Source of the DNA: a phage
Reading direction: 5' to 3' (one strand)
Sequence record: OZ335960.1
Length of the DNA stretch: 64,000 bases
The position numbers and the translations under genes were made by a program. The notes under the pieces were generated by a model. It was not told the origin of the DNA, did no database searches, and worked only from the letters and a program-made list of their open reading frames with translations. Positions 6,727-37,164 of this stretch are shown one piece after another (position 1 is the stretch's first letter; each line of letters begins with the position of its first letter).

Positions 6727-6727
<1 letters not shown>
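6530..6727 (-). CDS. hypothetical protein
   Basis: ORF track 65 aa. Confidence 0.4.
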
Positions 6728-7948
<1,221 letters not shown>

Positions 7949-9383: not shown

Positions 9384-10971
<1,588 letters not shown>

Positions 10972-33494: not shown

Positions 33495-33644
33495 TTACTG
33501 CATGACTGTGATAACTGTCATGATAACACGTTGAATTCCGAACGCAAGAAGACCTCCTGCTACGGCAGGAACAACACCTAAACCCGCCAGTAAAATGCTA
33601 CCAGATACTAATGCAGCGCTTGTAATACCAATGAATGGACTCAT
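33495..33644 (-). CDS. small hydrophobic membrane protein (below track cutoff)
   Basis: Hand translation MSPFIGITSAALVSGSILLAGLGVVPAVAGG... 49 aa; ATGA overlap with the gene 52 stop; terminator hairpin directly downstream. Confidence 0.35.
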   Translation of the reverse strand: MSPFIGITSAALVSGSILLAGLGVVPAVAGGLLAFGIQRVIMTVITVMQ

Positions 33645-34969
33645 TTGATTTCCTCTAAATCTTTGGTGTATTCTGTAACTACATCAGTAGTTTTCCAATA
33701 TTCGTTTTCTTCTTTCTTAGCTTTAGCTTCTTCGGCAAGTTTCTTTGCTTCGTCGGAAGTCATATGAAAAATATTCATTCCGACTAGTTTATCAACATAA
33801 GAAGAATACATATCAATTTTAGAAAGTTCTTCGGTCAGTTCTTTGCGAGTTTTACCTTGCACAACAATTTCACCTGAAATTACTTTCTTAATGAAATGTG
33901 CCTTGGCAAAAGCTAAACGAAATGCTGATTCAGTTTCTTTGATTTTGTTATCAATTCGTTTTTGGACATAAGTTTTACGAACTTCAACGAAGTCTTTGAT
34001 TAAATCAACTACATTATCGTAAACTTGCAGCTTTCCTTTCTCATTAATAACGGTGATATTCTGGGAACGACGCTCAATCAACCCAAAGTCTTTCATGATT
34101 TTTGCGTGGCGTTCTTCTTCGTTATCGCTCAAAGAATATTCTTTGCGGAATTTAACTTTGAAGCCAAAACCATGCTCACCACAAGCATCATCCCACGTAA
34201 TGAAGCCTTTATCTTCAAGCGGGTCTAAGATTTTACTCACATAAGTTTCACGATCATACTTATACGGAATCTCAGTGATATGCATTTGAGTTCGTGAAGT
34301 AAACTTGTATGTTCCACGAATTTCATATTGACCGTCAATTTCAACGACTTCACCACGAAATTCTGGGAATTCTACCTTCGGTTTAGTTACTTTCTTTCCT
34401 TGAAGAGCTTGCAATACAGCTTTCTTGACAGAAGAAACACTATGAGGAAGAATGTAAGTTGCATAACCAGTTGCAATACCGGAAACACCATTAAGAAGAA
34501 CAGTAGGAATAATAGGCAAATAGAAAGCAGGCGGAATGTGTTCTTTATCTTGATGTACCGGAGCATATTCAGTATCTTTATATACACTATAGAAATTTTT
34601 ACTTACACGAGCAAAAATATAACGACTTGCCGCTGCTTTTTGAACGGTACGAGAACCAAAGTTTCCTTGACCATCTAACAAAGGAAAGTTATTATTCCAA
34701 GTATTAGCCATCAAAGCACCTGCGTCTTGCGCAGAGTTTTCACCATGATGATATCCAAGGTCTGCTACACCACCTGCAATAGAAGCGAGTTTGTGAAACT
34801 TATCTTTATTTCCTCGTGCCAAATCAAGAGCTCGAGCAATAACAAATCGTTGAACTGGCTTAAATCCATCAATCATATTTGGGATAGCACGATTTTCAAC
34901 CGTGTACATAGCATAAGCCAATGCTTCATTATCAATGATACTTTTTAAATCGCGATTATTCAGTTGCAT
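33641..34969 (-). CDS. 52: DNA topoisomerase II medium subunit gp52
   Basis: 442 aa; GyrA-like active-site tyrosine region. Confidence 0.9.
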   Translation of the reverse strand: MQLNNRDLKSIIDNEALAYAMYTVENRAIPNMIDGFKPVQRFVIARALDLARGNKDKFHKLASIAGGVADLGYHHGENSAQDAGALMANTWNNNFPLLDGQGNFGSRTVQKAAASRYIFARVSKNFYSVYKDTEYAPVHQDKEHIPPAFYLPIIPTVLLNGVSGIATGYATYILPHSVSSVKKAVLQALQGKKVTKPKVEFPEFRGEVVEIDGQYEIRGTYKFTSRTQMHITEIPYKYDRETYVSKILDPLEDKGFITWDDACGEHGFGFKVKFRKEYSLSDNEEERHAKIMKDFGLIERRSQNITVINEKGKLQVYDNVVDLIKDFVEVRKTYVQKRIDNKIKETESAFRLAFAKAHFIKKVISGEIVVQGKTRKELTEELSKIDMYSSYVDKLVGMNIFHMTSDEAKKLAEEAKAKKEENEYWKTTDVVTEYTKDLEEIK

Positions 34970-35106
34970 AAATTTACCATACTAGTGAATGTAGTGCCAT
35001 AATAACATCAGAAATGAAAAGCACGACTTGAATTAATCCGAACATTACTCCATAATATAGTGCTACCAATAAAGTAGCAAGGGCTAATGAATAGCCCAAG
35101 ATTTTC

Positions 35107-35265
35107 TTAATCATTAGTAGATAACAACACAAATGTTAAATATGCACACATACCCTGGGCTAAAGCTTGTGAAAACACACTGCTAGCATCAATACAGATA
35201 GTTAAAACACATGCTACTATCCAACAAACAAATGAAATAACTCCTAATAATTTTGCGATATTCAT
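35107..35265 (-). CDS. small inner-membrane protein, ac-like
   Basis: Track ORF trimmed to ATG 35265 (RBS GAGGAGAA) giving 52 aa; hydrophobic; tandem paralog of the next ORF. Confidence 0.5.
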   Translation of the reverse strand: MNIAKLLGVISFVCWIVACVLTICIDASSVFSQALAQGMCAYLTFVLLSTND

Positions 35266-35275
35266 AATATTCTCC

Positions 35276-35431
35276 TCAACTATTTTTAGAACCAATGTAC
35301 GCGAATAATGATAAAATCGCTAATACGCCCTGAGCTGATGCTTGCAAAAATACTGAAGTTTCTCCAGTTATTACTGTTCCGATGCATAAAAAGAACCAAC
35401 AGAAAAAGGCTATACCGTGAACAAATTTCAT
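35276..35431 (-). CDS. small inner-membrane protein, ac-like paralog (below track cutoff)
   Basis: Hand translation MKFVHGIAFFCWFFLCIGTVITGETSVFLQASAQGV... 51 aa; shares FxCW...SVF.QA.AQG with the adjacent ORF. Confidence 0.45.
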   Translation of the reverse strand: MKFVHGIAFFCWFFLCIGTVITGETSVFLQASAQGVLAILSLFAYIGSKNS

Positions 35432-35438
35432 ATTTTCC

Positions 35439-35519
35439 TCACTGGCGTCCGAAGACGCCTTTGGTTTTAAGATTATTACGATAGAACTGCATCACGTGTT
35501 CGTTATGGAAATTACTCAT
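35439..35519 (-). CDS. stp: Stp peptide (activator of the host PrrC anticodon nuclease)
   Basis: Hand translation [26 protein letters not shown], 26 aa, matches recalled T4 Stp; start overlaps the ndd stop. Confidence 0.8.
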
Positions 35520-35974
35520 TAGTATGCCTGCAAAACAAATTTAAAGTTATCAGCCAACATACGGTTCATTTCTTCAAGCGTTTGATATTCAGAATGATGA
35601 TTACGAGTAAACGCTAAAGCTAACTGGCCTTTTCCAAATCCTGTCGTCAGAGGTTTCATCTTAGAAGCAGGTAGATAAAATACTGTATATGGAACATTAT
35701 TATTTGCAATAGTACGCGCAAGCTGAGACCGACGCTGACGAATATGACTTAGAACTGCACTGAATCCTTGCTTAGAACGCTGATTACCTACATAAAATCG
35801 TGCAGATACACACGGACTATCAAATGGACCACCAAATTTACTCACTAAAAAGTAAAATCCAGGTGTAGATAAAATGTCTTTATGTGGAGTTCCAAAAACC
35901 CATTCACCGCCCTTGATTGTACCAATAACAGTAGCACCTGCATTATTCAAATCAGTAACAGTCATGTATTTCAT
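35519..35974 (-). CDS. ndd: nucleoid disruption protein
   Basis: 151 aa, matches recalled T4 Ndd. Confidence 0.85.
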
Positions 35975-36033
35975 ATTAATTTCCTCTAATTATTTTCTAC
36001 TCCAAGGCCGCATGAATACACACGGCCGATAAA

Positions 36034-36351
36034 TTAATCGTCGCAGTCGACGCTCAATTCCCAGAACTCTTCTACAGTATAAGTTTCAGTATCGTTTTCA
36101 ATACAGAAACGTTCATTACTGTTATTTGCTAAAGTAGCATTAACTGTCATTTTCTCGCTAGTGCTCTTAAGAGGTGAAATACGAATTAACTGATCACCAC
36201 TATCCAAGCAAAAAATTTCGCCAACTTTTACATCTTTAAAAATTTTCATATTCACCTCAGGGAGTATAAAATCCAAATGCAGTTGTTGACCATCCCATCC
36301 AATACGGAAAATTTGCACCAACGTAAAACATGAGAATATAAAACCAACCAC
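36034..36351 (-). CDS. hypothetical protein
   Basis: ORF track 105 aa. Confidence 0.45.
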   Translation of the reverse strand: MVGFIFSCFTLVQIFRIGWDGQQLHLDFILPEVNMKIFKDVKVGEIFCLDSGDQLIRISPLKSTSEKMTVNATLANNSNERFCIENDTETYTVEEFWELSVDCDD

Positions 36352-36363
36352 TCAGCAAATTCA

Positions 36364-36582
36364 TCATTTTACACCATTCCAAATTGTTTCAACCACAGAT
36401 TTTAAGCCATTTTGATGAATGTCCATTCCGACAACTGCCATCAAATAAATTCCAACTACAACTGAACCTAAGGCAAAAATCAGCATGAAAATGAATAAAG
36501 CTGGAAAAATATTATCGAAAAACCATTCAATAAATGTAAAAGCACTACGTTTACGCTTCATATTTTCCTCACATAAATCCAA
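36364..36582 (-). CDS. small membrane protein
   Basis: ORF track 72 aa, two hydrophobic helices. Confidence 0.45.
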   Translation of the reverse strand: MDLCEENMKRKRSAFTFIEWFFDNIFPALFIFMLIFALGSVVVGIYLMAVVGMDIHQNGLKSVVETIWNGVK

Positions 36583-36681
36583 AGTAAGCGTTTAATACAT
36601 CAATCATTAAAACGATTGGGAATATACTCAAAACTACTAGTATTATAACTACATTCCATATAGCTTTAACAATCTTTTTCA
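36569..36681 (-). CDS. small membrane protein
   Basis: Track ORF 36569-36817 reads through an early promoter; real start ATG 36681 with GGAGGAA RBS gives 37 aa (MKKIVKAIWNVVIILVVL...). Confidence 0.4.
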
Positions 36682-36709
36682 TTTTCTGTTCCTCCGTAGT
36701 TGATAGTTG

Positions 36710-36738
36710 TATAGTACCACAGAGGAACAGTCTTGTAA
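36710..36738 (-). promoter_or_regulatory. T4-type early promoter (conserved cassette copy)
   Basis: Same about 45-bp conserved cassette, TTTACA-17-TACTAT. Confidence 0.6.
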
Positions 36739-36957
36739 ACAACTTTTTTAAAAATATTCGTAATAAATGTGAATACCAATCACTACTGCCGAAACTTGCG
36801 CAACCCACCACGCACAAGCAATAAGCACAGAATTCAAAATTTTCATAATAACCTCATTACAAAAGTAAATGTTAAACAAATTAATGGAATACTAATTAAC
36901 CAAACAAAACACCACCACAATGAACTCATAGTTCAATCTCAACGATTTTCATTTTAC

Positions 36958-37164
36958 TCAATAATCTGCTAAAAGATCGACGATTGCATCACGAAGACAC
37001 TTATTCGCAATACGTTTAAGAGCAATTTCAGTTTCTGGAGCATTTTGAATAATCATTGAATTCAATTCAGCCTCAGCAAACTGAAGTTCTTTAACTAATT
37101 CAGCTTTATATTTTCCTTGCCCTTTCTTAGCTTTTGCTCGTTTTAATTCAGCTGTAGTAAACAT
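36958..37164 (-). CDS. hypothetical protein
   Basis: Track ORF (TTG start) trimmed to ATG 37164 with GGAGAAT RBS; early promoter copy at 37199-37227. Confidence 0.45.
   Translation of the reverse strand: MFTTAELKRAKAKKGQGKYKAELVKELQFAEAELNSMIIQNAPETEIALKRIANKCLRDAIVDLLADY

Follow-up and report, generated by a model that had tools for sequence, protein, structure and literature searches.

We analysed a 64,000-nucleotide stretch of phage DNA (sequence record OZ335960.1; hereafter the window) and focused on the small genes that lie between ndd and gene 52. This interval is the standard early-gene block ndd-stp-ac-52.1-52 of Tequatrovirus, the T4-like coliphages, plus one extra ac gene. The features of the block, together with two repair genes located elsewhere in the window, are as follows.

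6727-7635, minus strand: pseT, polynucleotide kinase/phosphatase, Pnk (PF25109 HAD_PNKP, E 1e-58; AAA_33, P-loop kinase, E 3e-23)
9384-10508, minus strand: rnlA, RNA ligase 1, Rnl1, 374 aa from MQELF (PF09511 RNA_lig_T4_1, E 3e-25; PF20819 T4_Rnl1_C, E 1e-39)
33641-34969, minus strand: gene 52, topoisomerase II medium subunit, 442 aa (length and position as T4 gene 52; labelled DNA topoisomerase II in the records that match the block)
34974-35114, minus strand: 52.1, predicted membrane protein, 46 aa, equivalent to T4 gene 52.1 (PF24129 DUF7396, E 3.5e-23; phrog_3595)
35107-35265, minus strand: acB, the T4 Ac ortholog, 52 aa (phrog_2501, E 1e-24; 98% aa identity to T4 Ac)
35267-35432, minus strand: 166-bp segment present here and absent from T4 in the DNA alignment
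35276-35431, minus strand: acA, the extra Ac-family paralog, 51 aa (phrog_2501, E 5e-26)
35439-35519, minus strand: stp, 26 aa, activator of the PrrC anticodon nuclease and inhibitor of EcoprrI (identical to T4 Stp; PF08133; phrog_6763)
35444-35459, minus strand: hairpin GGCGUC-UUCG-GACGCC with a C(UUCG)G tetraloop, within the last stp codons
35519-35974, minus strand: ndd, nucleoid disruption protein, 151 aa, an open reading frame (PF06591 Phage_T4_Ndd, E 8e-89)

The stp ATG and the ndd TAA have base 35519 in common (TAATG), an arrangement identical to that of T4. Ten bases separate acA from acB, and the acB stop overlaps the 52.1 start, as T4 ac does. Phage Ec_MI-02 showed 100% identity to the window across the 611 bases compared, and an Rfam search of positions 34000-37000 at E values up to 1 gave no match. 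Upstream of ndd, at 36034-36900 on the minus strand, lies the usual run of very small predicted membrane ORFs (ndd.1 to ndd.6 equivalents); these differ from T4 in length, ndd.2a for example having 65 aa in KNP5 and 40 aa in T4. Several public records carry doubtful labels around this block. Ndd appears as "naphthalene 1,2-dioxygenase" in several GenBank records (Ec_MI-02, locus L046 790-1242, L009 and others), apparently an error copied from record to record; Ec_MI-02 has no annotation for stp or 52.1; and MotA.1 of KNP5 is labelled "flagellar motor protein MotA".

The Stp peptide of the window was identical to T4 Stp and matched PF08133 at 26 of 26 positions (E 2e-21), in agreement with the preliminary description of this DNA, which had recognised a 26-aa Stp overlapping the ndd stop. 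The same description had placed pseT and rnlA in the window, and the domain matches bear this out: the kinase and HAD phosphatase of Pnk and the ligase and C-terminal domain of Rnl1, four of four Pfam domains, scored above the curated cut-offs. The repair logic that had been invoked for these genes is established: EcoprrI is inhibited and PrrC activated by Stp, while the tRNA is mended by Pnk and Rnl1 (PMC1484252, PMC2610378). Given its identity to the characterised T4 peptide (PMC1484252), the window Stp probably has the same activity on EcoprrI/PrrC. In a prr+ host, Stp would inhibit EcoprrI and unleash PrrC, and the cut tRNA-Lys would then be repaired by the window's Pnk and Rnl1. Compared with the T4 circuit, the phage side shows no difference, since Stp is identical and Pnk and Rnl1 have their full domain sets; this part of the story is textbook and already known. 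Stp itself varies among relatives. Two further forms were seen at loci L004, L006, L008, L017 and L043: one of 25 aa ending in GR*, in RB51, wV7 and REP4-like phages, and a diverged one of 26 aa (…MQWHRHNLKLTGVFGRP), in relatives with about 63% Ndd identity. One metagenomic contig has a version cut to 13 codons (L047 663-), and stp is absent from many distant relatives.

The acA gene encodes MKFVHGIAFFCWFFLCIGTVITGETSVFLQASAQGVLAILSLFAYIGSKNS (51 aa), and acB encodes MNIAKLLGVISFVCWIVACVLTICIDASSVFSQALAQGMCAYLTFVLLSTND (52 aa, counted from the ATG giving MNIAKLL). A Shine-Dalgarno GAGG lies 5 nt ahead of the acA ATG (context GAGGAAAAT-ATG) and GAGGAG precedes that of acB (context GAGGAGAATATT-ATG), with normal spacing in both. 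Pairwise BLASTP aligned the two peptides at 43% identity over 40 aa (E 8e-10), and both matched phrog_2501 from end to end, indicating a paralogy well above chance and confirming the earlier view of two paralogous Ac-like peptides of 51-52 aa. Neither peptide matched an Ac family in the local Pfam copy; precomputed PF26944 Phage_T4_Ac tags were present on the acA-type proteins P0004 and P0007, and on P0009. Alignment with T4 Ac (gene ac, NP_049877; PF26944; phrog_2501), which the preliminary description had suggested as a check, separated the two copies: acB is the ortholog, with the same 52.1 overlap, whereas acA is just 43% identical and lies on the segment that T4 is without. The acA peptide resembles T4 Ac in length, hairpin architecture, the SVF-Q-A-AQG motif and locus, but it ends in KNS with its own stop, while T4 Ac ends in ND and overlaps the 52.1 start. 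Compared with T4 Ac, acB carries one extra Thr before the final ND; this is the extra residue described for PP01 Ac, where it is reported not to change acriflavine susceptibility (bioRxiv 10.1101/2025.06.30.662393).

The AF2 model of acA, computed from a 9-sequence alignment, was a helical hairpin (helix 2-22, turn GETS 23-26, helix 27-50; mean pLDDT 76). The same hairpin shape has been obtained for T4 Ac by ESMfold (bioRxiv 10.1101/2025.06.30.662393), and the hydropathy profiles of acA and acB both fit two hydrophobic helices with a short polar turn. Columns invariant in both types were F9, C11, W12 and T19 in helix 1 and S-V-F-x-Q-x-x-A-Q-G at the start of helix 2. The conserved part of the family is the turn and the helix 2 start, [GD][EA][ST]SVF-Q-A-AQG. 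Over helix 1 and the C-terminal tail, acA and acB differ almost throughout. Both copies keep the SVF-Q-A-AQG motif, whose Gly is G35 in acA and G38 in acB. The G38R substitution of T4 Ac, which gives acriflavine resistance (bioRxiv 10.1101/2025.06.30.662393), falls in the alignment on the Gly of AQG. Among solved structures, the Ac profile matched no PDB chain by sequence at E values up to 10, and a Foldseek search of the acA hairpin against the PDB gave meaningless matches alone (E about 10), as expected for a 51-residue hairpin. A word-indexed protein search found 7 close Ac relatives, and when 1.84 billion representatives were scanned with HMMER, the Ac-like proteins came to about 6 small clusters, indicating that the Ac family is narrow and confined to these phages; two long proteins also returned by the scan look like spurious matches. 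Within acA (35352-35368, minus strand), the codons of the invariant TGETSVF motif coincide exactly with a terminator-like hairpin, ACTGGAG-AAA-CTTCAGT, and ATTTTTG comes after it; only 3 G-C pairs hold this weak stem, and its reading is confounded by coding constraint.

For T4, annotation and DNA alignment agree on a single ac gene located between stp and 52.1, in line with the earlier impression that T4 carries no second copy. Where the window has the acA segment, T4 shows a clean gap of 166 bp, and the two sequences are nearly identical on either side of it. The ends of this segment are ambiguous within the microhomology TATGAA, which is common to both possible crossover points. T4 retains the leader that is found ahead of acA here (…GGACGCCAGTGAGGAAAATATG), joined to the acB coding sequence at TATGAA, and its junction sits in a repeated Shine-Dalgarno/start sequence. 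T2 and T6 also have a single acB-type ac and no acA, and their sequenced stocks carry it truncated or frameshifted. The T6 reference ac (MH550421, L050 4678-4827), which is also the cluster representative P0011, is frameshifted after AQGM, giving …AQGMWCIFNICVVI*, and for the T2 reference (LC348380, L051 5035-5200) the annotation gives just 42 nt as a remnant of ac, preceded by in-frame stops. Each is apparently a loss-of-function allele of a laboratory stock. The higher proflavine sensitivity reported for T6 was considered as a possible effect of a tandem ac and ruled out, as T6 has the single acB type, frameshifted in the sequenced stock.

In RB51, RB32/33 and wV7, the sole ac gene is of the acA type, and its stop overlaps the 52.1 start as that of T4 ac does. 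This does not support the idea that the extra copy is new. The ac products of RB51, RB68, RB32/33 and wV7 ("acridine resistance protein") are 71-78% identical in amino acids to the window acA, and their genes follow the same stp leader; these phages have the acA type alone, overlapping 52.1, whereas the window has acA and then the T4-type acB. The tandem of acA and acB is found in KNP5, T4_ev151 and Ec_MI-02, and ECML-134 and pSs-1 carry it as well. The acA of T4_ev151 (L007 901-1056) is a mosaic, with an N-terminal half like that of wV7/RB51 and a C-terminal half identical to the window acA, which is direct evidence of recombination within the gene.

We counted each ac state in GenBank phage records from search matches, with RefSeq/GenBank duplicates included. 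Any match to the 611-bp block was found in 528 records, and about 51 of these carry the tandem (at least 80% of the block covered). The acB type was present in 460 records and the acA type in 93 (50 of them at at least 95% nt identity); derived from these figures, about 409 records have acB only, about 42 have acA only and about 26 are in another state, such as REP4. The window acA was present at full length and at least 95% aa identity in 48 records. The novelty that the preliminary description had implied for the tandem therefore does not hold: Ec_MI-02 is one of the tandem-bearing records, many of them annotate the two ORFs as "acridine resistance (x2)", and in Ec_MI-02 they are "hypothetical" or "acridine resistance". 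The tandem is thus already in public annotated genomes, and the acA form is already called ac in the GenBank/RefSeq records of RB phages. A literature search found no paper discussing the ac tandem, which leaves a small descriptive gap and nothing surprising.

Beyond these records, we collected 36 IMG/VR loci anchored on Ndd at 46-95% identity. All 5 Tequatrovirus-like loci among them were acB-only, and two Ac genes were found in 0 of the 36 loci and in 0 of 3 further contigs obtained from profile matches. Distant loci, with Ndd 46-66% identical and well outside Tequatrovirus, had at most one Ac-family gene, and many were without any; Jiaodavirus KP179 and the three contigs from profile matches had one each. 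The Ac-like proteins of these distant relatives still match phrog_2501.

A codon-aware comparison was used for rates between acA and acB and within each type. The two genes share 56% DNA identity with a dS of about 1.5, which is saturated; the flanks show 98-99% identity. Saturated synonymous sites indicate an old split between acA and acB rather than a recent duplication, contrary to what the word "duplicated" had suggested in the preliminary description. Within the acB type, dN/dS was 0.06-0.13. Within the acA type it was 0.32-0.67, only moderately below 1 and based on small counts (7-25 changes), with a motif free of changes, which gather instead in helix 1 and the tail; this is consistent with purifying but looser constraint on acA. 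In the roughly 50 tandem-bearing records, acA was at least 98% identical and nearly clonal at the locus, so that the intact acA ORFs in these records are weak as independent evidence of maintenance.

We also examined the position directly after stp. The stp hairpin has a perfect 6-bp stem, folds at -12.2 kcal/mol with a z-score of just -1.9, and lies directly 5' of the Shine-Dalgarno of the next gene. In nearly all stp-bearing loci fetched, the hairpin and the leader TGAGGAAAATATG are conserved before whichever small gene follows stp. The loop is UUUG in three loci and the opening pair is G-U in two, and the hairpin is lost in L047, where stp has decayed. There is no U-run after it on the sense strand, and the antisense strand reads terminator-like (GGCGTCCGAAGACGCC TTTGGTTTTA). 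In total, CUUCGG hairpins with a stem of 4-9 bp occur 13 times in the window. Behind the leader stands acA or acB in some loci and, in others, a distant Ac-like gene of 49 aa or an unrelated peptide of 53 aa (phrog_9347), and the array in the ndd-52 slot is completed by phrog_5941 (57-61 aa) and 52.1 (DUF7396). Slot variability of this kind fits the known plasticity of the peripheral regions of T4-type phages (PMC2839356, PMC4122927). In relatives, phrog_9347 has 51-55 aa and a GVW-P motif, and phrog_5941 has 57-61 aa and a motif like FER...GVYK and lies in some loci between ndd and stp. Either family occurs in the relatives' slot (L008 710-871; L009 755-910; L014-L020, L031-L036, L043 and L045), in varying order and number.

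No early-promoter-like sites were found on the minus strand in the stp-acA and acA-acB intervals. A PeSL mobile regulatory cassette was considered and rejected, as neither junction has a promoter motif and the stp hairpin stands on one side only. The locus is like PeSL shuffling (PMC2839356, PMC4122927) in the indel of a small ORF between near-identical phages, in its region of small membrane genes, and in a conserved stem-loop and leader at one junction. It differs in that the junction homology here is a ribosome-binding site and start codon of about 6 bp, not a promoter/stem-loop cassette of about 70 bp.

Taken together, the locus carries a T4-type Stp, a T4 Ac ortholog in acB and an anciently diverged paralog in acA. 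We consider it probable that one versus two ac genes is a presence/absence polymorphism, segregating at a plastic site that is occupied by small membrane genes. An assembly artefact is refuted as the source of the tandem and has next to no probability, because the copies are just 56% identical in DNA and the same arrangement appears in about 51 records from many phages and laboratories. Outgroups that have an Ac-family gene carry one copy, so that the most likely and most parsimonious course is that the pair arose once within Tequatrovirus. Single-copy states such as that of T4 would then arise by unequal or illegitimate recombination, and the different ac states would spread by recombination between co-infecting phages.

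For the first assembly of the pair, the sequences are compatible with either of two routes. In one, a unit extending from the stp stop through ac would have been duplicated in tandem, and the copies would then have diverged and been lost differentially; in the other, two diverged alleles would have been joined illegitimately. In the latter case there was no duplication in place, and acA and acB diverged as alleles in separate lineages before they were joined at co-infection. We regard such joining as a tentative but serious possibility: both single-gene states share their flanks (the stp leader upstream and a stop overlapping the 52.1 start), intermediate sequences exist in REP4 and P0009, T4_ev151 has its mosaic acA, and modular shuffling is documented for the plastic regions of T4-type phages (PMC2839356, PMC4122927). 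However, AGTTGAGGAGAATATTATG, the sequence between acA and acB, is similar to the leader at the stp end, AGTGAGGAAAATATG, as a tandem duplication of a unit beginning at the stp stop would leave. This resemblance favours duplication weakly and counts for little, because it is mostly generic T4 ribosome-binding site.

Ac makes the infected cell accumulate acridines, and acridine sensitisation is a laboratory phenotype. T4 becomes acriflavine-resistant when ac is knocked out, and E. coli expressing Ac is sensitised to the drug (bioRxiv 10.1101/2025.06.30.662393). In the same preprint, the only original source of the hypothesis, Ac is proposed to interfere with an inner-membrane efflux component, for example of AcrAB-TolC (repeated in PMC13250531). 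From its 98% identity to T4 Ac, acB may reasonably be expected to confer acridine sensitivity; no acridine-sensitivity test of an acA-type protein was found in the literature searched. The kept motif, the separate ribosome-binding sites and the purifying selection suggest that acA and acB would both be translated early and act like Ac. Both peptides are predicted to insert in the inner membrane as helical hairpins of about 50 residues, with termini that would face the cytoplasm by the positive-inside rule (K2 and K49 in acA, K5 in acB, and an acidic residue in the turn). A protein of similar size and membrane is AcrZ, a small E. coli protein of about 50 aa that binds AcrB in the inner membrane. 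There is no sequence relation between the two, as the PDB search with the Ac profile indicates; AcrZ has one helix whereas Ac is modelled as a two-helix hairpin, and action of Ac on the same pump is a proposal only.

Selection on membrane-associated exclusion or drug-uptake functions, as suggested in the preliminary description, would be conjectural. If both copies are made, they may have diverged in function, either by acting on distinct targets in the host membrane (such as separate RND pumps, or pumps belonging to other host species) or by working together as a hetero-oligomer, so that carrying both broadens or strengthens the effect. The low identity of the peptides, with helix 1 and the C-terminal tail almost wholly different, is consistent with such divergence, as are the unequal rates of the two types and the fact that about 50 records retain both copies with separate Shine-Dalgarno sequences. 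However, the conserved motif is the same in both, most relatives manage with one type, either acA or acB, and phages with the tandem form a young clade, nearly clonal at the locus; we therefore consider functional divergence possible but doubtful. Still less probable is a reading that combines this with the variable position behind stp, in which the hairpin and leader mark a recombination slot stacking alternative membrane hairpins (Ac types A and B, phrog_9347 and phrog_5941) and two Ac genes widen or strengthen the hold on inner-membrane targets such as RND pumps or membrane-linked defence. It would be expected to give the tandem clade a measurably different drug sensitivity or host range, and we treat it as an unlikely conjecture. 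The opposite view, that acA is an untranslated or decaying relic and acB alone is functional, seems very improbable to us. Several records do leave acA unannotated, its dN/dS reaches 0.67 in one close pair, and ac is dispensable and often broken in laboratory stocks, as in the T2 and T6 references. Against this, the ORF is intact in the 48 records, acA sits behind GAGGAAAATATG, the strong leader next to stp from which ac is driven in T4, its motif is fully conserved with the functionally critical Gly included, and the same type is the sole ac of RB51, RB32/33 and wV7.

Returning to the preferred reading of an old paralog that segregates in the population, the finding matters little beyond annotation housekeeping. 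Public records of these phages miss or misname stp, 52.1 and sometimes acA, and "ac" in T4-like annotations stands for two quite different proteins, of which a minority of phages carry both. The invariant SVF-Q-A-AQG motif marks a target for mutation in Ac, and the natural acA-only, acB-only and acA plus acB phages offer a comparison set for the proposed link between Ac and AcrAB-TolC.
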